UHGV virus genome: UHGV-0077154 | DNA: 13,459 nt | Strand: one strand, 5' to 3' | Source of the DNA: a virus | Part shown: piece by piece, positions 1 through 13,459 of the stretch | Position numbering within the stretch: the first letter of the stretch is position 1 | How the letters are laid out: each line of letters begins with the position of its first letter | Notes under the pieces: generated by a model | The model's input: the letters and a program-made list of their open reading frames with translations, nothing else | Told to the model about the DNA's origin: nothing | Databases searched by the model: none | Program-made: the position numbers and the translations under genes

Positions 1-54
1 GAACGAGAGCTTCCCAAGCTCTATACGAGGGTTCGATTCCCTTCGCCCGCTCCA
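1..54 (+). tRNA. glyU: 3' 54 nt of tRNA-Gly (anticodon CCC); the 5' ~20 nt lie outside the window
   Basis: Sequence gaacgagagcttCCCaagctctatacgagggttcgattcccttcgcccgctcca matches from memory the 3' part of enterobacterial tRNA-Gly1: anticodon stem-loop AGAGC/TTCCCAA/GCTCT, T-arm GAGGG/TTCGATT/CCCTT, acceptor 3' strand CGCCCGC, discriminator T, CCA at 52-54. One extra matching base (g at position 1) compared with the right-hand copy suggests this is the genuine gene. Confidence 0.8.
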
Positions 55-85
55 GTCTCCTGATAAATCAACAAGTTATGATTTA
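2..85. repeat. attL: direct repeat, 60 bp perfect (2-61) plus 24 bp imperfect extension (62-85)
   Basis: 2-61 is identical to 13376-13435. The following 24 bp (62-85 vs 13436-13459) differ at only 3 positions, so 55-85 matches 13429-13459 at 28/31. Confidence 0.8.
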
Positions 86-89
86 TCAG
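60..89. promoter_or_regulatory. 9-bp perfect inverted repeat CTGATAAAT-N12-ATTTATCAG just past the tRNA end; candidate recombinase binding site
   Basis: ctgataaat (60-68) and atttatcag (81-89) are exact reverse complements separated by 12 bp. Confidence 0.35.
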
Positions 90-621
90 TTAGTTACGTT
101 GCCCCGCTTTAGCAGGTACAACTTAAACTACCCATTGTTCTACGCCCGCACCTGTCGCGTGATTGGTCTGTGGTACAAGGGAGCATATCATCACGCTGGC
201 GGTGGTTCCAAGTTCTTACCGCGACAGTACAACAACGAACAAAAAGCCGCATACCTGGCATAACTCCCGAACTGATTGATCACACGCATTTAAGCCCGAT
301 GTGTGGCCCTATGAGCCACGTAAACAGGTGAATAGTGGTAATGCCCCGGTAGCTACAGATCCGGCTCTGCCAGCGCTTCGCTCACGCTCCGAAAGGTACA
401 CGAGCACCCTGATAAGGTGTGATCCATCTGACAATCTGATGATGTCGCTACGCTCCGCTTGTTGCTTGTACCACTAACGGGGCTTTATGGTTTCTATTGA
501 CTTAAATTAGATAGTTGCAAGGAAATAAACTAAGGATAATTTAAGTGTTGAGCGGTTTACTCATACTGCTTGAGGGCAGTATCATTACAACATTAATGGG
601 ATTTTTAAGGGACTGATGTGA

Positions 622-1257
622 ATGGCTGAGTATCATCCTGCGGTATTTAATGCTGAGGCTTTTAACTGTCCTTACTGCGGTGTATATGCCCGTCAGTTCT
701 GGCGCAATTTGTTTGGTAGCGGAAATGCGTTGGCAACTGTTGCGACTGCGTTCCGTATGTCAACATGTTCTCATTGTGATGAAGATTCTTATTGGTATGA
801 GGGCAATATGATGGTCCCTGCTGCTGGAAATGTGGAACTACCTAGTCCTGACATGCCTGAAGACTGCAAGTTCGACTATATGGAAGCAAGAAGCATCGTT
901 AATCTGTCCCCTAAAGGTGCTGCTGCACTCCTTCGCCTGAGTCTGCAAAAACTGATGGTCCACCTTGGCGAACCGGGTAAACATATTGACACGGACATAA
1001 AATCTCTCGTGGCTAAAGGCTTGTCTCCGTTGGTCCAAAGAGCCGCAGATATTTGTCGCATTGTCGGTAATCAGGCTGTTCACCCCGGAGAAATTAATCT
1101 TGATGATGACCCGCAATTAGCACATGGCCTCTTCAAATTACTGAATATTATTGTCACGGAACAAATTACCAGACCCAAAGAGGTTGAAAAGATGTTCAAT
1201 AGTATGCCTGAAAGGGCGTTGAAGGGTATTGAAAACAGAGATAAACCTAAAACTTAA
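622..1257 (+). CDS. Zn-ribbon plus DUF4145-like domain protein (211 aa), possible defence/abortive-infection cargo
   Basis: ORF with two CxxC pairs at the N-terminus (CPYC, CSHC). The C-terminal half has the pattern [13 protein letters not shown]...[33 protein letters not shown], which I recall as the DUF4145 signature (R-x-GN-x-a-H). Weak SD (AAGG about 12 nt upstream). Followed by a hairpin at 1263-1276. Confidence 0.6.
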
Positions 1258-1260
1258 ACT

Positions 1261-1280
1261 GAGGGGCTTAAGCCCCTTTA
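1261..1280. terminator. Palindromic hairpin GGGGCTTAAGCCCC between convergent genes; candidate bidirectional terminator
   Basis: Perfect 14-bp palindrome at 1263-1276, flanked by an A-run upstream and TTTA downstream; lies between the stop codons at 1257 (+) and 1283 (-). Confidence 0.5.
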
Positions 1281-1282
1281 GA

Positions 1283-2101
1283 TTATTCAGAAAACCAAAT
1301 TTCTGGCCGTCTAAACTCCTTATTCTCAATAAAAAACAGAATATCTTTCCAGGCTTCTTCATTTTCTTCCCAGAATTTTTGTTTTTCATTCATTGTAAGG
1401 ACTTTACTATCATCTATTAACTTCTTGAGAATAGCAGGGATATCTTTATAGGGTTTTTTCCAGAAGGCATTACGTAATTCTTCAATTTCTGCATTTGCAT
1501 CCCGAACGGGTTTTAGAAGTTCAAGCTGTTTTTCTGTATCGGTAATAGGTTTATTTCCAACCCACTGATGATAGATTTTGCTAGCTTCTTCATGATGACC
1601 CCGAAGAATTGTTATTATTGTTTTTGAGAGTAACGAGCACATGTCAAAAGTAGTAAAGTAAAACCAATCGTGTTTGATTGCGGTTAATTCATCTTTTTTA
1701 ACCCCTATTTGTTCAAGTTCACTCGAAATTGAAGATACTAATTTATAAAGATCTTTGTTTGATGTTGCTGTATCTAGGCGTCCGGTTCTGGAGGCTAATG
1801 AAATAGCTACTTCAGAAATAGGTAAGGAAACTTTTCTTAAACTATCTAAAACTTTTTCAGCATCGTTAATAGTATCTCTTAATTTTGCCTCCATGCCTAA
1901 GAGCTTTATTTCATGCCATTCAAATTGAGTAAGTACCATCAACCCGAAGCCTGTTACAATGACAACAGTCCCTTCAGTTGCTCCTATTGTCAGAGTTACA
2001 ATTACACCAGCGCCTATAAGTAGCAATGCAATGAAAAACAAAAAATTCTTTATCCATTTATTTTTTAGCATATCACTGTCACCATTACGATTAAATTTCA
2101 T
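1283..2101 (-). CDS. Hypothetical membrane protein (272 aa, or 262 aa from the second Met), AT-rich cargo gene
   Basis: Long ORF in visibly AT-rich DNA. N-terminal hydrophobic stretch FLFFIALLLIGAGVIVTLTIGATEGTVVIVTGFGLMVL predicts 1-2 TM helices, followed by a charged, helical soluble domain. A GGTGA SD precedes the second Met (start about 2071). Confidence 0.65.
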   Translation of the reverse strand: MKFNRNGDSDMLKNKWIKNFLFFIALLLIGAGVIVTLTIGATEGTVVIVTGFGLMVLTQFEWHEIKLLGMEAKLRDTINDAEKVLDSLRKVSLPISEVAISLASRTGRLDTATSNKDLYKLVSSISSELEQIGVKKDELTAIKHDWFYFTTFDMCSLLSKTIITILRGHHEEASKIYHQWVGNKPITDTEKQLELLKPVRDANAEIEELRNAFWKKPYKDIPAILKKLIDDSKVLTMNEKQKFWEENEEAWKDILFFIENKEFRRPEIWFSE

Positions 2102-2124
2102 CCAATATGAAGTAAAGTAAGTAA

Positions 2125-2334
2125 CTATTTTTCGTTCTCTGATGCCTCAAACGTCTTGGAGTGAGGGCAGGACTGGGAGCGCGTCACCAGCGTGAACAGA
2201 TAAATGTTGCTTTCGTAAGTGCAAAGCCGTTTTCCGCCCTGTAACTCTTGTTCGTCGGGGTTGCTCATGGTGATTTTTCCTGCATGAGCCGCCAGCGGCA
2301 GCAGTGCCACAACAAATAGTAAAATTTTCTTCAT
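2125..2334 (-). CDS. Small signal-peptide protein (~69 aa), function unknown
   Basis: MKKILLFVVALLPLAAHA|GK... is a typical Sec signal peptide with an AHA-G cleavage site; the mature part has 2 Cys. The track ORF 2125..2340 begins with GTG; ATG at 2334 is the more likely start. Weak SD. Confidence 0.4.
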   Translation of the reverse strand: MKKILLFVVALLPLAAHAGKITMSNPDEQELQGGKRLCTYESNIYLFTLVTRSQSCPHSKTFEASENEK

Positions 2335-3325
2335 TTCCACAACCTGCCCCGTAGGTGTCCCGGCTCTTTATCCTCCAAGTTTACATTCTCCTGTTGAAAA
2401 TATCCCCGGCTCTGTTGGTGATCTGCTAGACCGTCAGCCCAGGCCCTCGGTGAAAAGCGCTTTTCTTCGCCAAATATCGCTACGTTATGCCTTCAGCGAC
2501 ACGCCTCACTGCAACAAGCAGTGCAGTTACACAATGCTGCTTTGGGCTGAGGCAAGGGAGATAACTTGATGTTTTGAAGTGCCTCTGTTCACTAATTGTA
2601 CAACCATTTAACATATTGTATCTTATAAGTACTTGACTGGAATGGTCAGGTATTGCTTTTCGGAGCGTTGATGCGAAGCGGAGTACACAACAACGATTTG
2701 ATCAACAGAAGGAAAGCATTCGGGAGGATTTGAGGTGAGTTCTCTTGTTCAAGGATTTTGGATGAGTTTGTCCGGTCACCACACAATTTCAGGTTTCAGG
2801 CCTTTGAAGCTGCCAGCGCATCTAACACGATGAAAGAGCATTTTTCTCTTTATCAGCAGAAAAAGAGCTACTACGGCGACGTTACCACAACGGGGTGAAG
2901 AACTATCGTCACCTGGCGAAATTCTCCCGCCCTTGCAGGTCACGGATACGTACCTTTTCCCGCACCAGCGCAAGCCTTCTCACCAATAGCCCCGTATGCT
3001 CCACCAGAAGCGCTACAGCGCGTCATCTCCACACAATTGTAAACTACACACCCATAGCACAGCGCCCCGCTGAGAAGCTCTGACACGCCCAGAAATGGAT
3101 GGTTTTTCGTTGATTTTGCGAAGAAAATTAATTTTTTCGGTATGGAAGGGCGGATCGGTAAACTGGTTTGACACGCATTTGGTTGACATATTTAACGCAT
3201 CCAGCCCCTGCGCGGGTTCGTTGTGTATCCGATACCATAACGATCACCACACCACACAGGCGAGCCAGTGACAACAGACAGGATTTTCTAGCAATTAACC
3301 GCAATTAACAGGTATTAAAGCTCTA

Positions 3326-3697
3326 TTATTTCCCGCCGAAAATCCAACCGATGATGGCACCGATTATCGCAGAGCGGGTCTCACCTGCTGCTCCTTTGAG
3401 AACGTTAATAACTGCATCGCCTGCACCAGGTGCCTGCTGTTGAAGTAAATTCAAACCACGAGGTGTTAACTTGGCGGCGGTATCCATGTCGGTTGAAGAG
3501 ATTATCTCCGTGTAACCCATATCGCTGAGAGCCTGGAGTGTGTTGCAAAGCAGGTCAATCTGAGTTCTGTCTCCTCTGGGCTTCCAGCCGAAGTCTGAAA
3601 ATTCGAAAGAAGAGTAAGCCGGATAGTCCGCAAACAGTTTCACCAGGATTCCAGTTGCCATCTCGTTAAAGCTGTCTTTGCCTTGGACGAATTCCAT
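3326..3697 (-). CDS. Hypothetical protein (123 aa) with C-terminal Gly-rich hydrophobic tail (tail-anchored?)
   Basis: Good SD (AAAGGAAA, about 8 nt upstream of ATG on the minus strand). C-terminus SAIIGAIIGWIFGGK looks like a single TM/GxxxG segment. Transcribed divergently from the iteron/promoter control region. Confidence 0.6.
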   Translation of the reverse strand: MEFVQGKDSFNEMATGILVKLFADYPAYSSFEFSDFGWKPRGDRTQIDLLCNTLQALSDMGYTEIISSTDMDTAAKLTPRGLNLLQQQAPGAGDAVINVLKGAAGETRSAIIGAIIGWIFGGK

Positions 3698-3821
3698 AAT
3701 GTTTCCTTTTGTTCACTGATTGAACGAGGTTACTTACTTACCGCTGGAAGTGCCAGCAAGAAGGGATGACGCTGTGCTGTTAATCACTAGGTGAGGGGGT
3801 GTCTTCTACCAGAGGGGAGGC

Positions 3822-3916
3822 CATTGGTAAAGAATCTTAACTAACGTTAGTAAAGATCCTTAACCAGCCATTAGTAAAGAATCTTAACTAACCATTGGTA
3901 AAGATACTTAACCGTA
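3822..3916. repeat. Four tandem ~24-bp iterons (consensus about CATTG-GTAAAGA-ATCTTAAC), followed by an AT-rich stretch (3917-3970)
   Basis: GTAAAGA recurs at 3827, 3850, 3874 and 3898 (spacing 23/24/24 bp), with conserved flanks cattgGTAAAGAatcttaac. Downstream AT-rich DNA contains TAGATCA x2 and CTATATCA x2. Confidence 0.7.
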
Positions 3917-3985
3917 CTATATCACTTACTAGATCATCTTTAGATCACTGCCTATATCAGTAAAAACATTAAGGTCAAAGACAGA

Positions 3986-4001
3986 TTGAACATGCGTTCA
4001 A
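3986..4001. promoter_or_regulatory. Inverted repeat TTGAAC-ATGC-GTTCAA, operator-like
   Basis: 6-bp arms are exact reverse complements with a 4-bp spacer; located in the divergent control region. Confidence 0.35.
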
Positions 4002-4296
4002 TTGTTGGAGTTGTTAGGTGTTATGTAGACAGGCTTCGCCTGTTTACACTCTGTGTGGAAGACAAGCGCAAGCGCGTCAGTCCAATGTGGATCGAGCACG
4101 GCGCAGAGGAGCTTTAAACGCGACGTAACTCCCCCCTTGGAGGGGCGGCGCACCCCCCTCAACCCTGCGCTCTAACAACATCTCTAGAGTCCTCTATCGC
4201 GTTCTGAGCGTCTTTCTCTTATTGTTGGTGACTTTGTACCGTTCCGCTTACAGCGTTGAATCTGAAGCGTCTGAGAGCGTTTTGTGATTACGGGGC

Positions 4297-4410
4297 TTGA
4301 CAAAGAAAATGTATGTGTATAAGGTTGCGGGGTATTGACACAAAACATTTATATCTCTTTATTCATTAAATGAGTTATCGGTTGACAAAGAAACTAATTT
4401 ACTATAAAAT
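4297..4410 (+). promoter_or_regulatory. Three tandem TTGACA-containing repeats/promoters upstream of the rightward operon
   Basis: TTGACAAAGAAA at 4297-4308 and 4382-4393, TTGACACAAAAC at 4335-4346. The third has a good -10 (TAAAAT at 4405-4410, 17-bp spacer); the first has TATAAG at 4318-4323. All are oriented toward the CDS at 4469. Confidence 0.55.
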
Positions 4411-4468
4411 ATATATTATCAAATGAGATGATTTTATGACTAAACAATAACTTAAATAGGAGAGATAC

Positions 4469-4897
4469 ATGGGGAAACCTGTTCTGTTCGATTTCTCGAG
4501 CGCCACTGCCTCAGAGATTGTCGCTGCAATCGATGCAAAAATTACCACAGCTCAAAATCTGCACGCCTTCCGCACTCGTATGGGTGGTGCCAAGAAAGCC
4601 GATAAGCTCTATCCAGCTACTCGCGAAGCACTGAACATCATTAAACGCCTGCGTCAGCAAGCGAAAGACGCAAAAATCATCCGGGATATTCTTAAACCGT
4701 ACTCAGCAGAGTTGGCAAAAGGCCGTGATGTTATGGAAATCATTGAACCAGTGCTGTCTGCCTGGCGTGTCTATTACGCCTCTCATGGCATTGGTTTGAT
4801 GAATGAGCAGATCCTCCTGTTGAAAATGATTGAGGCGGGCGGTGAACTCGAAGGTATTACCGGAAAACCCATTCCCGAACTGACCACAACCGAATAA
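4469..4897 (+). CDS. Hypothetical protein (142 aa), first gene of rightward operon
   Basis: Strong SD AGGAGA with a 5-nt spacer to ATG; no family recognised. Confidence 0.7.
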   Translation: MGKPVLFDFSSATASEIVAAIDAKITTAQNLHAFRTRMGGAKKADKLYPATREALNIIKRLRQQAKDAKIIRDILKPYSAELAKGRDVMEIIEPVLSAWRVYYASHGIGLMNEQILLLKMIEAGGELEGITGKPIPELTTTE

Positions 4898-5072
4898 CCA
4901 TTCTCTTCTTTACGGTGCGAAGCACTTTACCAGAGGTAAACACCTCCGGTGCTATTAGCTTTACTCTGTTGGCAGCAACGCCACCAAACGAAATCGCCGT
5001 AAACACGGCTCCTTACCCCTGATCAATTCCATGATCGCAGGGGCGCACCCGCATATCTAACGCACAGGAGAG

Positions 5073-5264
5073 ATGATTGTGAAACTGTCACTAGACGATG
5101 AAACATATGCAATTTTACGCGAAGAATCTGACCGTTTGGGGATGCCAGTTCCGAGGATGATCCGGAACATGTGCCAGAACCTGGCGAAACACATTCAGAA
5201 ACGCAATGAACAACCACTGACGAACCCACAGGGAGAACAACATGACAGAGACAGTAGAAGCTAA
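5073..5264 (+). CDS. Ribbon-helix-helix-like small DNA-binding protein (~61-63 aa)
   Basis: IVKLSLDDETYAILREESDRLGMPVPRMIRNM fits the beta-strand plus two-helix pattern of CopG/Arc/MetJ-type RHH proteins. GGAG lies 8 nt upstream of GTG at 5079, which may be the true start rather than ATG at 5073. Confidence 0.55.
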   Translation: MIVKLSLDDETYAILREESDRLGMPVPRMIRNMCQNLAKHIQKRNEQPLTNPQGEQHDRDSRS

Positions 5265-5886
5265 TCTGCCAGACGAACAGGACGGCACTTTTGATCGCAA
5301 TTATACCGAGATTAAGCGCTTGAAAGTGTTGGTTGCCGACGATGGAACTAAAATTCCGTTCAGCGCGAACATGAAAGTAGTCTACGCCTACCTCTACACC
5401 TTCCAGACAAATAAAGAGCGGCGGAACTACCCTGAGCCAATTTATCCTAATATGGAAATAATCGCGTGGGAAAATGGCATTACTAAACCCACGGCGCAAA
5501 AGGCTGTGGATGATTTGATGCGGGCGGGGGTGTTGATTAAGGACCAAATTCAGGTTGGGAGCGGGTTTAAGTCCAACAATTACGTTGTGTTGAAACCCTC
5601 GAAAGTGGTGGCGCGTGGCGTCACTCCACCGCATCCAAATGCTTCTAAATATTCAACTGCCGAGGAGAGCGGTAAGAATGAACAAAAACGTGCTGTGGTG
5701 GAACCTGCCGCGCCTGTTGCTGGAAAACCAGACGGCATACCTGTTGTGGATATTCCTGTCGATGCTGATGTACCTGCCGATGATGATGCGGTGATCGGAG
5801 ACTTTAGTGATCCTTACCTTGATGCTGAAGTAAAAGAATGGCAGAAACAAAAACATAGTGGAGGATTGAATTGTGTGAACACGTAA
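5242..5886 (+). CDS. Putative winged-helix-like DNA-binding protein with acidic C-terminal tail (214 aa); candidate iteron-binding initiator or regulator
   Basis: SD GGGAGAA 4-5 nt before ATG; overlaps the upstream gene by 23 nt. Segment MEIIAWENGITKPTAQKAVDDLMRAGVLIK resembles a wHTH; C-terminus is D/E/P-rich (DIPVDADVPADDDAVIGDF). Function is inferred only. Confidence 0.6.
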   Translation: MTETVEANLPDEQDGTFDRNYTEIKRLKVLVADDGTKIPFSANMKVVYAYLYTFQTNKERRNYPEPIYPNMEIIAWENGITKPTAQKAVDDLMRAGVLIKDQIQVGSGFKSNNYVVLKPSKVVARGVTPPHPNASKYSTAEESGKNEQKRAVVEPAAPVAGKPDGIPVVDIPVDADVPADDDAVIGDFSDPYLDAEVKEWQKQKHSGGLNCVNT

Positions 5887-6347
5887 GCGTTGAACTGACC
5901 GCAGATGAAGAACAAAAGCTATCTCGCCTTTTCTCCGTCCTGGAGAAACCGACATATAAATCCCGATCCAAACCTTCCGATCCGGAAACACAACGCAAAG
6001 CCCGTTTATTGCTTAATCGTGGATTTTCACCGCATATTGTCGCTAATACCCTAGATCTGCCGTTCGCTGAAGTCTGGCGGCTCGCACGTCAAAAACAAGC
6101 GGTGACCTGGGCGATGATGACACCGACAGCCCGGACAGAATTTGTCCGTGAAATGTGGTCACATCGGATGCACCCGGAACAGATCCGCAAGCGTTGCGAT
6201 GGTCTGTCATACGTCAGTCTGAGATATTACCTGCATAACGCCGGGATCACTGACGCTGAAATGTTGGGTTACTACCCAGACGTGTTCGTGAATATCTGCA
6301 AGCTGCCGACAGTGAAGAAGAAGCGCACTAAGTGTAAGGCCCGTTAG
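5871..6347 (+). CDS. Hypothetical basic protein with HTH-like segment (158 aa)
   Basis: TTG start 6 nt after GGAGG (5860-5864), overlapping the upstream gene end (coupled translation). KARLLLNRGFSPHIVANTLDLPFAEVWRLARQ is HTH-like; lysine-rich C-terminus. Could be a regulator or a small-terminase-like DNA-recognition protein; not resolved. Confidence 0.55.
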   Translation: MCEHVSVELTADEEQKLSRLFSVLEKPTYKSRSKPSDPETQRKARLLLNRGFSPHIVANTLDLPFAEVWRLARQKQAVTWAMMTPTARTEFVREMWSHRMHPEQIRKRCDGLSYVSLRYYLHNAGITDAEMLGYYPDVFVNICKLPTVKKKRTKCKAR

Positions 6348-6349
6348 GG

Positions 6350-6365
6350 TGAACGTTAACGTTCA
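6350..6365. promoter_or_regulatory. 16-bp perfect palindrome TGAACGTTAACGTTCA
   Basis: Exact self-complementary 16-mer immediately after the stop codon at 6347; shares the TGAAC/GTTCA half-site with the palindrome at 3986-4001. Confidence 0.4.
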
Positions 6366-6511
6366 TCACTTTGTGACCGGATCGCCAATCCAAATAATCC
6401 CACATCGGGAGCCAATGAACTTTGAAGCAATCCTTTCTTACCTGCCCGTTGTCTGGCTGGCGTATCGCTGCGTCCGTGATGGGCTGATCCTACTTTGGAG
6501 ACACCATAAAA

Positions 6512-6892
6512 ATGACATTGAACAGCATTAAAAATGCTCTGTTTGCCGCTATGCACGGCATGACACCGGAGGAATACGAACTCCAAAAGGCGCGGGACAA
6601 TCTCAAGAGCGTCACCGATAACTTTCTGGATCAACATCCGGAGTTGCTCAAATCAGCCTCGTCTGACACCCCCACGGATAAACGGGGCGAAGCCCTCTCG
6701 CCAATGCGAGACACCTTTGGTGCTGAACAACGGATTAAAAAATCTTTGGGCGCTGATAGCCGTCCGGCGGTAAGTCATACCGCTGATCACATCGATCCTG
6801 AAATGCTGGCGAAAGCTAAAGCAGCGGCTGCTGCTCTCGCAAAATCTGACCCTGATCGTTACGGCAATATCATCAAGCAGCAGGGGGTGTGA
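6512..6892 (+). CDS. Hypothetical protein (126 aa)
   Basis: ORF with GGAG about 11 nt upstream; its stop overlaps the start of the next gene (GTGATGA), suggesting translational coupling. Ala/Lys-rich C-terminus. Confidence 0.55.
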   Translation: MTLNSIKNALFAAMHGMTPEEYELQKARDNLKSVTDNFLDQHPELLKSASSDTPTDKRGEALSPMRDTFGAEQRIKKSLGADSRPAVSHTADHIDPEMLAKAKAAAAALAKSDPDRYGNIIKQQGV

Positions 6893-9036
6893 TGGCGAAT
6901 GGCAATATCATAGTGACTGAAACCGTAAACGAGGTGACATGGTCTGTCGATCGGACAGCCTTCGGTCGCGCCCTGAAAGCTGTTAAATCCATCAAGGCTG
7001 CTCATGAGAAACCAGCTAAGGCGCTTGAGAAGGCCCAGAAGCGGACCGTCCAGAGTGAAGGCAAAGCCGCACTAGCAGCAGCGAAAGCCCAGACAGCGAA
7101 GCTACGCCAGGCTGAACAATTGTCTAAACAGCAACAGAAACAAGCTCAGATACAAGCCAAAATGGAGCGGGACGCAGTAGCCCACGCCAATAAAATGACC
7201 TCATTACAGGCGCGTCAGTTATCCCAACAGGAACAGGCAGCACGTCAGAATGCCCGTTTAGCAGCAATATCTGAAAAGGTGAGACAGGCGAGTCGCTCCC
7301 GCGCGATGACCTACACCCCAAACATGGGCGGTCAACATTACGATCCTGGTCTTGTTTCCCGTCAGACTGACGCAATGAACCGTGGTCACGGCGCTGTTGC
7401 TGCCGACATCGCAGCCACCAAAAAGGCGATGGCCCTGGAGGAGAAGCGCCAGCGTGAGAAAGAGGCAGGACTTAAGCGTGAGGTGACTTATTACAACAGT
7501 TTGCGCCGTAGCGCTTTGACTCTGGCAAACGTGAACGGCGCTGACGTTGCAACCCGTTATAAAGCGATCAGTGCAGCAAAAGAGGCACTCAAAGCCCAGA
7601 AAGAAGAGCGTTATACGGTCGAAGAGACCCGTTTCGAAATGGCCCGTATCACTACAGAATTACGCAAGCAGGCTCGTCTGCAACAACGTATTACCCGTGA
7701 GCAGAAAGCCGCAGGTGTTCGTGCTGGTCGTGTACGCACAGAAAGCCGTGGTGGAAGTGTAGGTCTGGCTGCCGCTGGTGTTGTTGGTGGTGCGGCGTTA
7801 GTAGGTAGTATGGGCGTTTCTCGTGTTGGTCAGACCCTTCAGGGAAGCCTTGAGCGTTCTCGCGATGTGAAAAAACTCCAGCAGTATGGGATCAGCAACC
7901 TTGAGTTCGCAGCACTTCAGGATCTATCAATGAGCCGTGTTGGTTACTCACTGAGTGCTGACAAGCTGGCTGACCTCAACAAGGACACAACCGAAAAGGC
8001 CGGGGAATTGCTGAATACTGGCTCTTTCAAACGTAACAAGAAAACTGGACAGGTGAATTTCAGCGGCGGTGGTGAGTTTGCAGATATCATCAATAACGTA
8101 CTGACCTCCACCAACGGCAACCAGAAGGTAGCCCAAAAGGTGATCGGGGAACTGCAAAAACTGGATTTTCCAACATTTATCACTTATCTAAAGCAATTAC
8201 AGAAAACTTTCGGCTGGACTGATCGACAGGTGCGACACCTGGCCGAGGCTGTGAATGATGGTTCGGTCTTCCTCGAAGTGTTCAATGATGAGGGGCAGGG
8301 ACTTATCCAGCGTATGAATCAACTCGCTTCTGAAGGATGGACCCTATCTGATGCACAGCAGGCCAACCTTGATAAGCTGGCAGCTTTGGGTGCTGAGTAC
8401 AGTCGCGTGCAGATGTCGCTTGCTGACCACTTCAGCGCCAGCTTCGTGCAGGGTCTGGGAGAATATGCAGCTAATACTGACACTCTACGTCAGAAGATGA
8501 CTGGACTGATCCCAATTTCCGATGCTCTCGGCGTTGCCCTTGGTGAGCTAACCACCAACATTCTCTCCTTCGCTGGTCGAGTCGGTGAAGAACTCAAGAA
8601 AGGCGCGACACTGCCGGATGCAGTCTACAACACCGTAGTGGATGACTCTGCAAATAGCACCGCCGATTGGATTAAGGAAAAGACCGGATTTGATCCACGC
8701 AGCATCGGTCAGACGCTCAAACAGATTTACCCGTGGCTGGATAGTTTCGCTCCGAGCAATATCGGCTCAGGCACGGCGTATAACGATCCAGCGCTAGCGT
8801 TGAATGTTCCTGGTTTCAACTCAATACAACCCCAGCAACCAACGTTTACGATTCCGACAATTGACAGCATGACGCAGCGACAGCCGATTCCTGTTGCGGT
8901 CACTGGCGAAGCTGAGATTAAACTCTCACCGCTTGATATTAACGTGAATGACGGCGCTATTAACGGTTTGATTGATACAAAACTGAGGAGCTATGAGCAG
9001 GCACAGAACAACATGATCCTTGGTATTGCTCAATGA
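6889..9036 (+). CDS. Large coiled-coil protein with central Gly/Ala-rich hydrophobic segment (715 aa); tape-measure-like or scaffold-like structural protein
   Basis: N-terminal ~270 aa are A/K/Q/R-rich heptad-like repeats (KAQTAKLRQAEQLSKQQQKQAQIQAKMERD). Central segment GGSVGLAAAGVVGGAALVGSMGV is TM-like. Sits immediately upstream of the D/E-like capsid genes. ATG at 6892 is the more likely start (GGGGG 4 nt upstream). Assignment is by architecture only. Confidence 0.55.
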   Translation: MMANGNIIVTETVNEVTWSVDRTAFGRALKAVKSIKAAHEKPAKALEKAQKRTVQSEGKAALAAAKAQTAKLRQAEQLSKQQQKQAQIQAKMERDAVAHANKMTSLQARQLSQQEQAARQNARLAAISEKVRQASRSRAMTYTPNMGGQHYDPGLVSRQTDAMNRGHGAVAADIAATKKAMALEEKRQREKEAGLKREVTYYNSLRRSALTLANVNGADVATRYKAISAAKEALKAQKEERYTVEETRFEMARITTELRKQARLQQRITREQKAAGVRAGRVRTESRGGSVGLAAAGVVGGAALVGSMGVSRVGQTLQGSLERSRDVKKLQQYGISNLEFAALQDLSMSRVGYSLSADKLADLNKDTTEKAGELLNTGSFKRNKKTGQVNFSGGGEFADIINNVLTSTNGNQKVAQKVIGELQKLDFPTFITYLKQLQKTFGWTDRQVRHLAEAVNDGSVFLEVFNDEGQGLIQRMNQLASEGWTLSDAQQANLDKLAALGAEYSRVQMSLADHFSASFVQGLGEYAANTDTLRQKMTGLIPISDALGVALGELTTNILSFAGRVGEELKKGATLPDAVYNTVVDDSANSTADWIKEKTGFDPRSIGQTLKQIYPWLDSFAPSNIGSGTAYNDPALALNVPGFNSIQPQQPTFTIPTIDSMTQRQPIPVAVTGEAEIKLSPLDINVNDGAINGLIDTKLRSYEQAQNNMILGIAQ

Positions 9037-9132
9037 TGAAACAGAGGGTGGCGAATTCGTCGCCCCTATCTCAACACCACAATGCGTATGTATCAAATTT
9101 AGCGACAAATCAAATACTTTTCGTGAAATTTG

Positions 9133-9161
9133 TTGTAAATGATAATCATTCGTGTTAAAAT
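9133..9161 (+). promoter_or_regulatory. Sigma70-like promoter (TTGTAA-17-TAAAAT) overlapped by a Fur-box-like element
   Basis: AATGATAATCATT at 9138-9150 matches the central 13 of the 19-bp Fur consensus GATAATGATAATCATTATC (14/19 overall); -35 at 9133-9138, -10 at 9156-9161. Confidence 0.4.
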
Positions 9162-9167
9162 AATATA

Positions 9168-9542
9168 CAAGGTGAATTACAACAGCCAAATGTTTTTCCC
9201 TTCTCCTTAGGAATCAAAGTGCGCTTTTCCCAGAGCGCCTTTTCTCATACAGCCAATATCCGCACCCTCTCACGGTAAGGTTAGGCCATTGCCGCTGGCT
9301 GTATCAGAAAAGCATCGCAGAGCGATTAGCCAGCAGGCTAACCCGTTCTCGTGTGTAGAAAATTTCCACCTAAGGTGGATTTGCCAAAAGTCCTGTCCTC
9401 CTCGGCGGGCTGTCAGCCGGACACTAACGGCATCAGGTGGCAACGTTTTTGGGTCTCCTTACCCATTCTTTGGAGCGTTGCCGCCTCCTCATTCCTACCA
9501 GTGAAATTCACACCGGACGACTCTCCGTCCGGTCACTTTTTT
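9168..9542 (+). ncRNA. Candidate non-coding transcript/leader between the Fur-box promoter and a strong terminator; possibly a short ~80-nt form ending at a weak hairpin (9221-9246)
   Basis: No credible ORF here (the track ORFs are R/P-rich with no SD). Several hairpins: TTAGCC-AGCA-GGCTAA, TCCACC-TAA-GGTGGA, GCGCT-N8-AGCGC followed by CTTTTCTC. Ends at the intrinsic terminator 9513-9542. Confidence 0.3.
9513..9542 (+). terminator. Rho-independent terminator
   Basis: Stem CCGGACG (9513-9519), loop ACTCTC, stem CGTCCGG (9526-9532), then TCACTTTTTT. Confidence 0.7.
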
Positions 9543-9610
9543 CATCGGAACAATTCTAAAGGCTGGCCCTGTCGCCGTTTACGGCTCAAGCAGGCGCTGG
9601 CCTTTTGTTT

Positions 9611-9622
9611 ACATAGCTATGT
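9611..9622. promoter_or_regulatory. 12-bp perfect palindrome ACATAGCTATGT about 22 bp upstream of the D-like gene SD
   Basis: Exact self-complementary 12-mer; candidate operator/activator site for the capsid operon. Confidence 0.35.
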
Positions 9623-9645
9623 GAAATTTAACGGGAGTTAATTAT

Positions 9646-9987
9646 ATGAAAATGGGAAGCCTTGAGCGCTCTTACAATGACGTGATCGCGTATGCAGCCG
9701 ATCCGAATTTTGACCGCAAGACTATTACTGTCGATCTAGCTGTAGAAGTCCAGCCGGGTAGTTGCATTACCAGCACTGGAGCTGCTTATGTCTCTGGTGA
9801 TGACTGCCTGCTGGTCCTGAGCCACCACAGGGCCGAAGATGCTGCTCATATCATCGTTGCTGATCGCGGGATTTACATCAAACAAGACACCATCACCGCT
9901 GTTATGGGCGCTACCGCTGGCGCTAATGCTATTGCCGCACTCACCAAAACGGGCGCAATCCGTACTAGCGCACCGGACGCAGAATAA
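9646..9987 (+). CDS. Lambda gpD-like head decoration protein (113 aa), tentative
   Basis: Size (113 aa vs 110 for lambda D), position directly upstream of the E-like gene, and a Gly/Ala/Thr-rich beta-type composition (TITVDLAVEVQPGSCITSTGAAYVSGDD...TAGANAIAALTKTGAIRTS). SD GGGAG 8 nt before ATG. Confidence 0.45.
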   Translation: MKMGSLERSYNDVIAYAADPNFDRKTITVDLAVEVQPGSCITSTGAAYVSGDDCLLVLSHHRAEDAAHIIVADRGIYIKQDTITAVMGATAGANAIAALTKTGAIRTSAPDAE

Positions 9988-10005
9988 TAATAAGGAGAAG
10001 ACAAC

Positions 10006-11040
10006 ATGGGACTATCAACCAATTTCAGCTACGCGGATTACACCAACACCTTTGTGAACATGGATGCAAAGAACACTTTGCTGTCCACGCTTAATGTTTT
10101 CAGTGATCGTCAGACTTCTGCAAGTCCGAAGGTGAGCCTCGATATCATTGATGAAGTCGCTCAGAAGGTGGCAAGCTCTGTTAATCGTTACGGTTCAGAG
10201 TGGTCAACCATTCCTAAGCGTAGCGCTAGCAATCACCTGATTGAAGCTCCACTTTATGCTTTTCAAGACCGGATTACAGCGGCAGACGTGCAACCATATC
10301 GCAAACCAGGCTCCGACCTGCAAATGTCTGTAATGGATGCGGTCACTTCTTCTGCTGTCGCAATGCACGATAAGTACATGCGTACTAAAGAGAAAATTTT
10401 CGCTGACGCACTCTTCCGAAATACTGTCGAAGCGACCTACACCCAGCAGCCGATCATTTCCTGGGAAGATGAATTTGGATACCAACAGGCAACCGGAACG
10501 ATCAAAACCAGCGTTAGCTCTGGTGACCCACTTCGCAGCCTCGATGATGCAGTAACCGCTGCTAAAGTGCGCATGGGGGGCCTGGCTGGTCAGCTTGATG
10601 GATTTATCCTGTTTGCAGGTAGCAATGTTTATCGCGGCATTAAGTATCACCCTGATGTTCGTCAGAATGTTCAGTTCGGTGTGCTTGATCGGGATGTTCT
10701 GTTTAATAAAGAAGTGCTTCCGGCATTCTCAACATTCATCATTGAAAATGTTCGAGTGGTGGAGGTCACGGATCAGGCACTTTACGGAATTGGTCCGGAT
10801 GAATCCTTCCTGGTTCCACGTTTCAGCCGCCCACTGTCCTCTGATATTGCTCTACCTTTCGGTTATGTAGCAACGGCTACCAGCCGCAATCTTGATCTGG
10901 CATTTGCTGATCCGGTTGATTTCCGTATCTGGAGCGTACAGGACAAGTTTAAGAACGTGGAGCTATTCGCGGAAAGCTCAATCTTGCCTGTGGTGTACCG
11001 TCCGGATTTCGTTACAAAACTGACGAACGACGCAGCGTAA
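10006..11040 (+). CDS. Major capsid protein, lambda gpE-like family (344 aa)
   Basis: Strong SD AAGGAGAAG. Length 344 aa vs 341 for lambda E. C-terminal region ...VVYRPDFVTKLT resembles lambda E ...LADPDEFVSVQLA. Gene order decoration-then-capsid as in lambda. A hairpin at 11053-11074 (TGGGGC-N10-GCCCCA) follows the stop. Confidence 0.6.
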   Translation: MGLSTNFSYADYTNTFVNMDAKNTLLSTLNVFSDRQTSASPKVSLDIIDEVAQKVASSVNRYGSEWSTIPKRSASNHLIEAPLYAFQDRITAADVQPYRKPGSDLQMSVMDAVTSSAVAMHDKYMRTKEKIFADALFRNTVEATYTQQPIISWEDEFGYQQATGTIKTSVSSGDPLRSLDDAVTAAKVRMGGLAGQLDGFILFAGSNVYRGIKYHPDVRQNVQFGVLDRDVLFNKEVLPAFSTFIIENVRVVEVTDQALYGIGPDESFLVPRFSRPLSSDIALPFGYVATATSRNLDLAFADPVDFRIWSVQDKFKNVELFAESSILPVVYRPDFVTKLTNDAA

Positions 11041-11121
11041 GACAGCGGATTTTGGGGCTGACTATTTGGCCCCACCGTGAAGAATGGCCTGAAAAGGCGA
11101 GGCAAAGAAGAGGTGATTACT

Positions 11122-11325
11122 ATGAAAATTCAATTTCAGACTAACAACGGCTTCCCGTTGCTGACAGTTGCAGACGAGCGCGTTTTAGATTTTCTGAACG
11201 TTAGCGCAGTGTGTCGGTTCCTGAAGGTTCCGCGTTCCTCGTTCATGATGGACGTTGAGCAATACGGGCTTGAAAAGGCAATCAGTGAAGCCCTGCTGAA
11301 GTTAAGAAAGAATAAAAATTGTTAA
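11122..11325 (+). CDS. Hypothetical small protein (67 aa)
   Basis: ATG at 11122 preceded by GAGGTGA with a 5-nt spacer; the track ORF's upstream Met at 11077 has no SD. No family recognised. Confidence 0.5.
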   Translation: MKIQFQTNNGFPLLTVADERVLDFLNVSAVCRFLKVPRSSFMMDVEQYGLEKAISEALLKLRKNKNC

Positions 11326-11379
11326 TAATCAATCTGTTGGTATTTGTTGTCAAAAGAATCATTGTGTTTGTTTTTCGCG

Positions 11380-11450
11380 CATTTACTTGACACTATGATG
11401 CAGATTGCGTAGGCTGAACATAAAATAATTGACTATTCTATATTCAAACC
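11380..11450 (+). promoter_or_regulatory. Putative promoter region for the small AT-rich cassette
   Basis: TTGACA at 11387-11392 with a weak -10 (TAGGCT, 17-bp spacer); AT-rich surroundings; precedes a strong SD at 11499-11504. Confidence 0.3.
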
Positions 11451-11509
11451 GGACTTCAACTTGAGAATGCTTCGTTCCTACATCTCCCTTCAAGGGGTAG
11501 GAGGATTAT

Positions 11510-11719
11510 ATGAACTTTGATATGCGTACAAACCAAAATTGTGCATCTTTTTTTAACCCAGCAACCAAGGCGTTTGTCGTCGTCGATTCGTTTGACAACT
11601 ACGAGTTCGATGTTCGTGCTGGTACTTTATCACGCACTGAATTTGTAGGCACAATCACAGCTTCGAACGATGAAGAGTTGAACAAGAAATTAGCTGAGAT
11701 CACGGCTGCTCATATATGA
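11510..11719 (+). CDS. Hypothetical small protein (69 aa), cargo cassette gene 1
   Basis: Excellent SD AGGAGG with a 5-nt spacer; AT-rich codon usage; stop overlaps the next start (ATGA). Confidence 0.65.
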   Translation: MNFDMRTNQNCASFFNPATKAFVVVDSFDNYEFDVRAGTLSRTEFVGTITASNDEELNKKLAEITAAHI

Positions 11720-12090
11720 TAACTCAACAGCAAATTGATGATTTAGTTGCAGATATTAACGATATCTTAGAAGAAGATAGAGCTAGACTGAAGATGTCAT
11801 TTCATTTTGCTGTTGATAGACTCAATGATCAGCGTAACAAACCTCCAATCACGCTAGATGAATTGAGAGTGATTTTTACAAATTTCATTGAACAACACTT
11901 GCAGACCATTTTAGGCAAAGATGAGGGGTTCTCCTTCACTATTAAGTGCCAGAAATCAGGTATTGCTATACCTTGCGCCATAGAGCATGAACTTGAGATT
12001 GGTGCAACGTGGGTAGTACAGCAAGTGATCACCATCATGCGGAATCCGAACTTTAACCCATACCATGGTGATGTCATCTTCGAAATCTAA
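11716..12090 (+). CDS. Hypothetical protein (124 aa), cargo cassette gene 2
   Basis: Translationally coupled to the upstream ORF; AT-rich; followed immediately by a strong intrinsic terminator. Confidence 0.65.
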   Translation: MITQQQIDDLVADINDILEEDRARLKMSFHFAVDRLNDQRNKPPITLDELRVIFTNFIEQHLQTILGKDEGFSFTIKCQKSGIAIPCAIEHELEIGATWVVQQVITIMRNPNFNPYHGDVIFEI

Positions 12091-12092
12091 GT

Positions 12093-12118
12093 AAAAAGGC
12101 GCAATAGCGCCTTTTTTT
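12093..12118. terminator. Bidirectional rho-independent terminator (AAAAAGGCGC-AATA-GCGCCTTTTTTT)
   Basis: Perfect GGCGC/GCGCC stem with a 4-nt loop, flanked by an A-run and a T-run; sits between the convergent cassette gene 2 and integrase 3' ends. Confidence 0.8.
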
Positions 12119-13313
12119 ACAAATCCGGATAACACGCCAACTCGACATACTCCGATAGTTCCTTCATCCCTGGCCCTTTGCTGTAGGTTCTGAATGCTTC
12201 GGTTTTCGCTTTTTGTTCGGTATGTCCAGTGATGGCTCCGATCCGTTGTTCTGGCACCCCTGCACGGTCTAAGCAGGTGATGAACATTCCCCGTAAGCTG
12301 TGAAAACATTGCCGATCTGTAGCGGTTGGCAATGTGCTGTCACGTAGCCGGGTAAACTTTTGGCTGTACCACGGACCCCGCTTACCATCCTTCCGAATGA
12401 TGTTATTAGACTGAGCCAGAAGATATTCACCGCTGTTATTTGCCAGATGCTTATCAACAATCCCCATCAGCAGCGAGTGGATCGGAACATACCGCACCCC
12501 GGCTACAGTCTTGGACTTGCTGACAAAGAAACATCTGACACCCTCCAACATTACAATTTCATCCCGCTTGATGCTGGCGATCTCATCAAGTCGCATTCCT
12601 GAATACAGCCCAATCAGTATGACATCGCGTAGAACGTCATCCGCTTCTCTGACAAGTGTTTGCAATTGTTCAGGTTCAAACGGCTGATAACTTTCTATCG
12701 TGCGACGTGCTTCGAGGTTATGACCGTGAAACGGGTTACTGTCGGGGATTGCGTCATATCGACGTTTGGCGAACTCGTACAGACTCCCTAAAGAGGTTAG
12801 CCAGTTTTGCACGGTCTGCGGTGCTGCCTTTTTCTGTTGGCCTTCAATGAAGTCTGTAACCGTTCTGCGTCCTATCTTGTTCAGACTAATATCAACTTTA
12901 CCGATACTCTGGAGAAATACTTCCACCGCTCGCGCGGATTTGCTGAGTGTGGAAAATGCCCGACGTTCACTATAAACCGTCATGTATTCATCACGGATGA
13001 CTGCCAACGTTGGGATAGGGGAGACTGCTACAGGCGTACTCTTGGCCTGTTTGATTGTGGTGTGGAGTGTGGTGATCGCATTCTGGATGCGAATGTCTTC
13101 CCGATCAGGATTCAACAGGGCTTTCAGATTGTTGAACTCAATCAACATGTGATTTCTGAAGTGACGAGCCTTAAGGATGTCTTTTGTCCCGGTGGATTTT
13201 CGCCAGGCTCGTTTGTTGTCAAACAGGTGACGCATGTACGCAGGTACAAAGACCTGAAAGATCCATACGCCCGAATGACTTTGAAAAAGATACTGATTGT
13301 TCTTGATAGACAT
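12117..13313 (-). CDS. int: Tyrosine recombinase / phage-type integrase (398 aa)
   Basis: C-terminal catalytic motifs: GMRLDEI (Arg box I), HSLRGMFITCLDRAGVPEQRIGAITGH (H-x-x-R box II), FRTYSKG (catalytic Tyr). SD AGAGGA about 8 nt upstream of ATG; gene lies next to attR. Confidence 0.9.
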   Translation of the reverse strand: MSIKNNQYLFQSHSGVWIFQVFVPAYMRHLFDNKRAWRKSTGTKDILKARHFRNHMLIEFNNLKALLNPDREDIRIQNAITTLHTTIKQAKSTPVAVSPIPTLAVIRDEYMTVYSERRAFSTLSKSARAVEVFLQSIGKVDISLNKIGRRTVTDFIEGQQKKAAPQTVQNWLTSLGSLYEFAKRRYDAIPDSNPFHGHNLEARRTIESYQPFEPEQLQTLVREADDVLRDVILIGLYSGMRLDEIASIKRDEIVMLEGVRCFFVSKSKTVAGVRYVPIHSLLMGIVDKHLANNSGEYLLAQSNNIIRKDGKRGPWYSQKFTRLRDSTLPTATDRQCFHSLRGMFITCLDRAGVPEQRIGAITGHTEQKAKTEAFRTYSKGPGMKELSEYVELACYPDL

Positions 13314-13375
13314 GATTTCGATCCTCTAAAATCACGCCATCAGGTACAGCCATATGTACAATGTCGGGATGGAGT

Positions 13376-13459
13376 AACGAGAGCTTCCCAAGCTCTATAC
13401 GAGGGTTCGATTCCCTTCGCCCGCTCCAGTCTCCTCATAAATTAACAAGTTATAATTTA
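13376..13459. repeat. attR: partial tRNA-Gly 3' copy (60 bp perfect to 13435) plus imperfect extension to the window end
   Basis: Identical to 2-61; the sequence upstream (caatgtcgggatggagt) does not match the tRNA 5' half, so this is the truncated copy. Confidence 0.8.

Follow-up and report, generated by a model that had tools for sequence, protein, structure and literature searches.

A tRNA-Gly island of Enterobacteriaceae with virion-type genes and a structured RNA leader, a probable phage satellite

A phage satellite is, in general terms, a small mobile element without a full set of virion genes. P4 has neither a capsid-protein gene nor a gene for a tape-measure protein (TMP); its late genes are controlled via the helper and its immunity is RNA-based. 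PICMI is a minimal island of about 5–6 kb that is described as having no capsid-remodelling genes. The cf-PICIs, in the account that Alqurainy et al. are said to have given in 2023, carry portal, protease, connectors and terminase and take only tails from the helper. PLEs rely on the coat protein of ICP1 together with an external scaffold, TcaP, and possess a large serine recombinase. Every PLE has a gene for an alternative TMP, which becomes part of PLE virions (PMC11838301). The genes of EPIPs, 11-kb elements of Mycolicibacterium, include those for a major capsid protein, scaffolding protein and TMP, with a small terminase, head-to-tail adaptor, stopper and serine integrase in addition (bioRxiv 10.64898/2025.12.02.691453). 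Here we describe an island of ~13.4 kb (13,374 bp in the frame of the two att copies) that is inserted in the tRNA-Gly gene glyU and lies on UHGV virus genome UHGV-0077154, a stretch of 13,459 nucleotides that was analysed whole and is called the window below. At 13.4 kb and without a full virion gene set it answers to the same general description, and on balance we consider it probably an integrative phage satellite of an undescribed family that is widespread in Enterobacteriaceae. Our literature searches returned no paper describing this element family. Its nearest precedents are the PLEs and EPIPs, both groups with their own TMP, and the claim of a first-pass annotation, made from the letters of the window, that such a strategy would be without precedent therefore falls: PLEs encode a TMP, and EPIPs a capsid protein, a scaffold and a TMP.

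We compared the gene content with that of each described family. Searches of Pfam, PHROGs and NCBIfam gave no match for a portal, a terminase, a protease, a lysis gene, a primase or a helicase, and none for a sheath, tube, baseplate or other tail gene beyond the TMP; apart from the TMP and the integrase, no open reading frame (ORF) beside the capsid-protein gene exceeds 272 aa. The first-pass annotation had listed the same absences. Its statement that there is no tail gene has to be withdrawn, as the ORF at 6889–9036 encodes a TMP, and a replication-initiator-like gene that it had missed is present at 5242–5886. Like the P4-like satellites, the island has a similar size (13.4 kb against 11.6 kb for P4), a tRNA site, a tyrosine integrase and hotspots for defence genes. 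Unlike P4 it has capsid-protein and TMP genes, and no Pfam or PHROG match is annotated sid, psu, delta, epsilon or alpha. Nor is any match annotated AlpA, primase or terminase, as would be expected of a PICI, and the initiator is O-like or DnaD-like. With the cf-PICIs it shares its own capsid, identical copies across species and genera, enterobacterial hosts and a tyrosine integrase; in contrast to them it offers, of the head and packaging set, a capsid protein without matches for portal, protease, connectors or terminase, and it has a TMP. With four structural genes in 13.4 kb it is not a PICMI either. Like the PLEs it is an integrated island, presumably a parasite of a virulent myovirus, with an alternative TMP only distantly similar to phage TMPs and a replication initiator of its own. 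It departs from them in bringing capsid, decoration and scaffold-like genes, in using a tyrosine integrase at a tRNA gene and in its enterobacterial hosts. No homologue of the tail chaperone or baseplate hub of PLEs was recognised in the element, and the model of its 126-aa protein matched no fold. The EPIPs are likewise small satellites with a capsid protein, a scaffold or scaffold-like protein and a TMP; they differ in their actinobacterial hosts, temperate helper and serine integrase, and no counterpart of their terminase, adaptor or stopper was found here.

The absence of the defining genes from profile searches thus bears out the first-pass view that the island is not P4-like, a PICI or a cf-PICI. 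We regard it as distinctly improbable that it is nevertheless a divergent cf-PICI, PLE or P4-like member whose hallmark genes have diverged too far to be detected. Four unassigned core ORFs of 60–158 aa and a 67-aa helix-turn-helix protein could include a small terminase, an AlpA-like protein or a chaperone, and the possession of its own TMP is a trait shared with PLEs. However, a portal, a large terminase and a protease cannot hide in ORFs of at most 158 aa, no family match to Sid, Psu, Delta, Alpha, AlpA, a primase or a small terminase was obtained, and PLEs use the helper coat protein whereas this element has its own.

The gene at 10006–11040 (plus strand) encodes the major capsid protein, a member of the lambda E family with the HK97 fold. 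It matches Pfam Phage_cap_E (PF03864) at 4.6e-14 and passes the gathering score of that family (52.6 against 22.9 bits), and a profile of its family matches the solved capsid proteins of PhiTE (9cul; 7e-17) and phi92 (gp124; 3e-16), as well as those of Bas63 and Sf14. Immediately upstream, at 9646–9987 (plus strand), lies the gene of a 113-aa protein that, by its predicted fold only, is a head decoration protein of the gpD or beta-tulip type. [quoted passage not shown] The AlphaFold model (pLDDT 78, pTM 0.71) retrieves in Foldseek the decoration proteins of Bas63, Sf14 and PhiTE (E 3e-4 to 1e-3, probability 1.0), followed by lambda gpD and the SHP protein of phage 21. The lambda D/E-like capsid genes proposed earlier are therefore confirmed, E by Pfam and D at the level of fold. 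The further proposal that the element supplies only its capsid shell and decoration is too narrow: it also has a TMP, a scaffold-like protein, an initiator with an iteron origin, a putatively RNA-gated capsid operon and defence cargo.

The largest ORF of the element, at 6889–9036 (plus strand), encodes a 715-aa mosaic homologue of tape-measure proteins (PHROG TMP families, 3e-17 and 5e-11). Residues 6–193 and 640–713 run collinear with the start and the end of the 802-aa TMP of BIS47 (Vequintavirinae), with ~75% identity over the first ~40 residues, and residues 308–569 align to residues 271–529 of the TMP of FBKp34 (Stephanstirmvirinae; 32% identity, 3e-38). In both BIS47 and FBKp34 the TMP gene stands in the context sheath, tube, two small ORFs (chaperones), TMP and baseplate. 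A relative, L022, has a TMP with a different middle and the same N- and C-terminal motifs. The TMP of PhiTE has its N-terminus at the neck and its C-terminus at the baseplate (PMC11972413), so the conserved ends would be expected to touch other tail proteins.

The gene at 6512–6892 (plus strand), whose stop codon overlaps the TMP start, encodes a protein of 126 aa that we call scaffold-like from its position and from a motif of its relatives. It is represented by 87 clusters over many enterobacterial genera. In its AlphaFold model a helical hairpin at the N-terminus is joined by a disordered linker of 50 residues to a helix at the C-terminus, without a fold match; this modelled shape is typical of scaffolds and is not diagnostic of them. 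The proteins encoded at the same position in the relatives L019, L005 and L001 carry the motif KGIALCH(E/Q)xQGYSANLRPxSL, which is 67–70% identical to residues 2–50 of PVP-SE1 gp072. In PVP-SE1, gp072 is encoded between an XkdF-like protease gene and the genes for decoration and capsid proteins, where a scaffold gene is usually found. We found the motif in 310 phage records, including those of Vequintavirinae and of Vibrio and Campylobacter phages; 82 are Vibrio phage records, 19 of them listed with V. cholerae as host. For the L019 protein there is a precomputed Pfam call (PF26210, Phage_phiTE_211), which our local Pfam copy did not reproduce. The window protein resembles the L019 protein weakly (31% over 51 residues, E 8e-5), and its sequence can be read as bearing a shortened version of the motif, RIKKSLG..SRPxV..IDPE.

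Three side observations concern this gene. A natural deletion in P0013 (an ENA contig; 278 aa) joins the scaffold-like protein, just past the helper-like motif, to the middle of the capsid protein. In the window, a 60-aa ORF at 6349–6531 that encodes a hydrophobic helix overlaps the start of the scaffold-like gene, and in L022 (184–663) the scaffold-like protein carries this hydrophobic segment as an in-frame extension of its N-terminus. The same fusion is possible in the 157–158-aa variants P0070, P0082 and P0087. The segment in the window, which lies in another frame, could be a separate peptide, a frameshift or a sign of decay.

Together, the nearest relatives of all four virion-type proteins are found in large virulent myoviruses of the rV5, PhiTE, PVP-SE1 and phi92 types. 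The likeness to the head modules of these Vequintavirinae and Stephanstirmvirinae phages (PVP-SE1, PhiTE, phi92) extends to the order scaffold-position gene, decoration and capsid, an E-family capsid, a beta-tulip decoration protein and the TMP end motifs, but sequence identity to the element proteins is low outside short motifs. Phages of the PVP-SE1, PhiTE and phi92 kind are virulent, have genomes of about 140–150 kb and form T=13 heads (PMC11972413). With no portal or packaging enzyme, the element would have to borrow these from a helper, and since all four virion-type genes point to one group, we infer that Vequintavirinae and Stephanstirmvirinae are the best helper candidates.

The organisation recurs well beyond the window. 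Relatives were drawn from GTDB genomes, IMG/VR, E. coli genomes and assembly look-ups, and ten diverse loci (L001–L010) were compared. They occupy tRNA-Gly and tRNA-Thr genes, with a truncated copy adjoining tRNA-Pro, and their integrases are 40–82% identical; gene order is constant across the tRNA sites. The four relatives with the tRNA in view are flanked by 23–61 nt repeats of the tRNA 3' end and measure 13,577, 13,249, 13,117 and 12,410 bp, against 13,374 bp here, so that element length stays within 12.4–13.6 kb whatever the cargo, even without a TMP gene. The common order begins with variable cargo, a 71-aa signal-like protein, ~1 kb of conserved non-coding DNA, and iterons with promoters. 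The operon that follows encodes a 142-aa protein, a small possible ribbon-helix-helix protein, the initiator, an unknown protein, the small scaffold-like protein and, in one clade only, the TMP (L005 and L008–L010 have no TMP gene). The right part comprises a promoter with a structured leader, the decoration protein, the capsid protein, a 67-aa helix-turn-helix protein, variable cargo and the integrase. Modules have been exchanged within this frame: between L002 and the window the capsid proteins are 32% identical, the TMPs 69% and the scaffold-like proteins 91%.

This constancy bears on whether the island is a decaying prophage remnant that has kept a few structural genes by chance. The element lacks most virion genes and includes ~1 kb of conserved DNA devoid of ORFs, the L001 integrase is a pseudogene and a second remnant adjoins attR, all of which such a remnant could explain. 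Yet the reduced gene set, with its ORFs intact and its order unchanged, is found again in many genera and at various tRNA sites, and near-identical copies occur in different genomic backgrounds. The closest phages that our searches turned up are large, virulent myoviruses; these lack an integrated state from which the element could have decayed, and no phage capsid protein reaches 25% identity to that of the element. Decay by chance thus seems very improbable.

We examined the near-identical copies for signs of recent movement. L012, L013, L015 and L016 are the same element as that in the window, with 3–13 base differences over 13.4 kb (L014 has 259). These copies sit behind glyU, and their right flanks are unrelated between genomes: the neighbours are, copy by copy, an MFS transporter with a LysR regulator, a LysR regulator with a tagatose/PTS cluster, a type III secretion cluster and a PA-IL lectin. 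NCBI names the exact capsid and integrase proteins as multispecies Enterobacteriaceae, including Klebsiella michiganensis, and the 90% identity clusters of the two proteins include Citrobacter, Enterobacter, E. coli, Serratia and Cronobacter. Among 5426 complete E. coli genomes, 5411 match the window somewhere and none over at least 80% of its length; the matches, nearly all over a short stretch, are presumed to be the tRNA. The capsid module is present in 22 of the 5426, and 13 more match part of the leader only. This sparse occurrence and the near-identical copies in varied backgrounds mean that the element is not a fixed remnant, the outcome that would have undone the original proposal. The comparison indicates that the element is real, is recently mobile and moves between species. 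Two element-sized contigs (QFQQ01000107, 13.8 kb, and a Logan contig of 13.4 kb) begin and stop at the att sites; we rejected them as an excised form, as assembly breaks at the repeat would be expected to give the same ends.

A full-length tyrosine integrase of 398 aa is encoded at 12117–13313 (minus strand; Pfam Phage_integrase 3.9e-9, phrog_1 1.2e-35), as the first-pass annotation had it. Direct repeats of 84 nt lie at 2–85 and 13376–13459, 96% identical to each other. Both correspond to the 3' part of tRNA-Gly(CCC), with CCC in the anticodon loop and the sequence of glyU; positions 21–71 of the Rfam tRNA model match window 1–51. ARAGORN called no complete tRNA because the window edge cuts off the tRNA 5' end. 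The 60-bp att repeats reported earlier are exact over the first 60 of the 84 nt, but the junctions compared in five hosts place the shared att core at window 2–53/54 only, ending at the tRNA CCA, since the right-flank sequence diverges directly after the CCA, host by host. The attL core (2–54, plus strand; repeat D1) thus comprises the 3' two-thirds of tRNA-Gly(CCC), and the attR core (13376–13428, plus strand) is a copy of the tRNA 3' end. The repeat appears longer than the core because the stump of a second, related element adjoins attR. From its similarity to L015, the segment 13429–13459 (plus strand) is the start of that element's left arm and lies outside the present element. L015 is the sole copy with the right junction of the window, and there the likeness to window 55–370 runs for at least 310 nt at ~92% identity (L015 13430–13740). 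The stump suggests that a former tandem insertion at glyU was cut back by a subsequent deletion.

A gap of 610 nt with no ORF separates the TMP gene from the decoration gene. An extended −10 promoter, TTGTAA-17-TGnTAAAAT, was located by promoter scan at 9133–9161 (plus strand), and TGnTAAAAT is present in all ten loci, 446–596 nt upstream of the decoration gene. It is followed by a structured RNA leader of ~480 nt (9168–9645, plus strand; fold z-score −7.9 against shuffled controls) with terminator-like hairpins at 9221–9246 and 9512–9543 (plus strand). The succession of a promoter and terminator-like hairpins is also seen in the distant relatives L010 and L002, with two to three terminators per leader. 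No Rfam family matches the leader. In L002-type elements its DNA is 87% identical to that of the window, against 32% for the capsid protein.

The conserved core of the leader (116 nt; 9386–9501, plus strand) contains, in order, hairpin A, an H-type pseudoknot, a long helix D enclosing hairpin E, and the tail CCUCCUCAUUCC. A comparison by hand shows that compensatory base changes preserve its five helices in all ten loci; the MAFFT alignment of the leaders was out of register by one column in several helices. Hairpin A, with the loop CUCCUC, occurs as CCUGUC/GGCGGG, CCGG/CCGG, CCUUUC/GGAAGG and CCAGCC/GGCUGG. Pseudoknot stem 1 changes from UGUC/GACA to CAUC/GAUG, and stem 2 from GCCG/CGGC to GUUG/CAAC, GCCA/UGGC or GUCA/UGGC. 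Helix D has 10–11 bp in three sequence versions, and hairpin E, with the loop CUCCUUA, changes from GGGU/ACCC to GAGG/CCUC. Overall the leader carries three CUCCU(U) motifs; these are complementary to Shine-Dalgarno sequences, and the leader might therefore act on translation too. Going by this architecture, we infer that the leader may be an RNA gate of the capsid operon. In the resting state the promoter would yield a short terminated RNA, and transcription would extend into the capsid genes only if a factor of the helper or of the element itself overrode termination, an arrangement that would resemble PR'/tR'/Q of lambda. Apart from any such role, the leader is an unclassified and well-conserved RNA structure whose regulatory function can be tested.

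The element also appears equipped to replicate. A putative replication origin at 3820–3916 (no strand assigned; repeat family D2) consists of four iterons, T[T/G]RGTAAAGAnnCTTAAC, with a period of 23–24 nt. The iterons are followed by an AT-rich stretch with GATC sites and lie 550 nt upstream of the operon. Within the operon, the gene at 5242–5886 (plus strand) encodes a winged-helix, O-like or DnaD-like protein that matches PHROG initiator families (8e-6 to 4e-3). The initiator allele varies in the family, and its counterparts in L001, L002, L010 and L028 match O-like initiator families or DUF6945. The main rightward operon is preceded by three promoter-like TTGACA sites in tandem (4298–4410, plus strand), and the strongest of them, TTGACA-17-TAAAAT at 4382–4410, is near consensus (11/12 matches in the promoter scan). 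The divergent control region described in the first-pass annotation holds as far as the iterons and these promoters are concerned; a recognisable repressor is not part of it. Two of the three sites share TTGACAAAGAAA, which could be operator sites for a repressor.

Cargo varies at both ends of the element. Here, the gene at 622–1257 (plus strand) encodes RAZR, or PD-T7-4, an anti-phage abortive-infection RNase with a zinc finger and a DUF4145/HEPN domain (PADLOC PD-T7-4 4e-98, full length; Pfam DUF4145 3.9e-13). RAZR is activated by ring-shaped phage proteins, including portals (PMC13017515). The gene for this portal-sensing protein sits on an element that has no portal and would need that of the helper. 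Next to it, a 272-aa cargo ORF (1283–2101, minus strand) is found in the closest relatives only, among the ten diverse loci in L001 alone, and has no significant family match in Pfam, PHROGs, PADLOC or NCBIfam. The second variable site, by the integrase, holds two accessory ORFs of 69 and 124 aa (11510–12090, plus strand; phrog_14630 4e-39 and phrog_14518 1e-63); relatives of the 124-aa protein occur in Klebsiella phage Kp4865-1 and in a 19-kb record titled 'Escherichia phage Phi05_1387 B'. In other family members the two sites hold DarT-NADAR, a GNAT enzyme, a resolvase or a YafO toxin, of which all but the resolvase are known from the site by the integrase, and L019 carries DarTG.

Such cargo would also suit an island that serves defence and is not transduced as a satellite. 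Its four virion-type proteins would then be decoys or poison subunits, made upon infection and directed against head and tail assembly of rV5/phi92-type phages, and the island would spread by generalised transduction or transformation. Besides the defence genes (RAZR, and DarTG in L019), the absence of any packaging gene or packaging site from our results agrees with this, as does the resemblance of the TMP ends and the scaffold motif to those of the presumed target phages; interference with tail assembly by mobile elements is already known (PMC11364771). On the other hand, the complete and ordered scaffold-like, decoration and capsid set has been kept although the capsid proteins of the relatives are only 32–53% identical, total length is held at 12.4–13.6 kb, the element has its own origin and initiator, and near-identical copies across genera suggest a dedicated vehicle. 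We therefore consider a purely defensive island unlikely. Interference and self-transfer coexist in known satellites, and the two readings are not exclusive.

If the island is indeed a satellite, infection by a helper of the kind proposed above would cause it to excise and to replicate from its own origin. Transcription from the strong promoter would read through the leader terminators into the decoration and capsid genes, whose products would build a small shell for ~13 kb on the helper portal, with helper protease and terminase. The element TMP, because its N- and C-termini are helper-like, would replace the helper TMP in helper-made tails, as reported for PLEs, and the defence genes in the variable cargo sites (here RAZR) would repay the host for carriage. 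In its full form, this would be the first satellite family of rV5/PhiTE/phi92-type myoviruses, with chimeric virions made of its own small shell, decoration and mini-scaffold and of the helper portal, terminase and tail with the satellite TMP, and with a pseudoknot RNA bearing three CUCCU loops as a helper-dependent switch. We put this full form forward tentatively, as a possibility that we would not yet call probable.

Several results weigh against the satellite reading, in its general or its full form. We identified no helper phage, and shared ancestry of modules does not prove present-day dependence on a helper. By tblastn the best phage capsid proteins are only ~22–24% identical to that of the element, which leaves its fit with a helper portal uncertain. 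The searches revealed neither a packaging signal nor a small terminase, and the non-coding DNA matches no phage. Among element-sized contigs none was circular or permuted, and the contigs retrieved gave no sign that the element excises, circularises or is packaged. Among its ORFs we recognised no repressor and no induction switch. In the 126-aa protein of the window the middle of the helper-like motif is absent, and this protein has no match in phages. Four core proteins, of 142, 158, 126 and 67 aa, have no assignable function: searches of Pfam, PHROGs, PADLOC, NCBIfam and PDB sequences, together with one structure prediction with fold search, returned only 'helix-turn-helix' and 'helical plus disordered'. 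Finally, the integrase of L001 (16988–18193; the thrW copy of E. coli ECOD1) is annotated as a pseudogene with an internal stop, and the 22 E. coli genomes with the capsid module may accordingly hold an immobilised copy.

Phages of the rV5, PhiTE and phi92 kinds are virulent, have broad host ranges and are candidates for therapy or biocontrol against E. coli, Klebsiella, Salmonella, Cronobacter and Enterobacter. To our knowledge no satellite of these phages has been described, and our literature searches found none. Should the satellite reading be correct, a satellite family that parasitises them, spreads in near-identical form across genera and brings abortive-infection cargo (RAZR, DarTG) would influence both how well phages work and how genes move in bacteria of clinical importance. 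It would also fill a gap between satellites that remodel the helper capsid (P4, SaPI, PLE) and those that bring a whole head (cf-PICI), and would provide a second, independent case of tape-measure replacement.

The remaining genes of the element are small. The first gene of the operon (4469–4897, plus strand; 142 aa) is family-wide, being present in 9 of 10 loci and absent from the truncated L006; among 1.84 billion proteins it has 22 representative clusters, nearly all of at most 150 aa. A 63-aa protein (5073–5264, plus strand), kept in L003, L004 and L007, is possibly of the ribbon-helix-helix type (weak Pfam RHH_1 match, 0.007). The 158-aa ORF after the initiator gene (5871–6347, plus strand) has no match in Pfam, PHROGs, PADLOC, NCBIfam or PDB sequences, and to see in it a helicase-loader analogue is a guess from gene order. 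Downstream of the capsid gene, the family-wide helix-turn-helix protein (11122–11325, plus strand; 67 aa from Met16; alignment A9, weak helix-turn-helix matches only) is a possible excisionase or regulator. On the minus strand, a 123-aa ORF (3326–3697) matches phrog_2266 (1.6e-6), of unknown function; it is variable, is found among the relatives only in L001 and is not a recognisable repressor. Also on the minus strand, a 71-aa protein with an N-terminal hydrophobic, signal-like stretch (2125–2340; phrog_4641 2e-8) has homologues in L001, L002, L004, L006, L007 and L010.

Between the last two genes lies the conserved non-coding stretch of ~1 kb (2341–3325, no strand assigned), which is C-rich on the plus strand and 71–89% identical in nucleotide sequence to five relatives. 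We rejected three explanations for it: a gene, as tblastx shows no preferred reading frame; a structured RNA, as the z-scores are −0.35 to −0.69 on both strands; and helper-derived DNA, as there is no DNA match in phages. A role as a packaging site or as an accessory site of replication is speculation. At the other end of the element, window 12060–12117 gives a sub-threshold Rfam match to the Salmonella small RNA STnc40 (29 bits against a gathering score of 45). It overlaps a terminator-like hairpin at 12093–12116, in the gap between the accessory genes and the integrase, and is probably just that hairpin.

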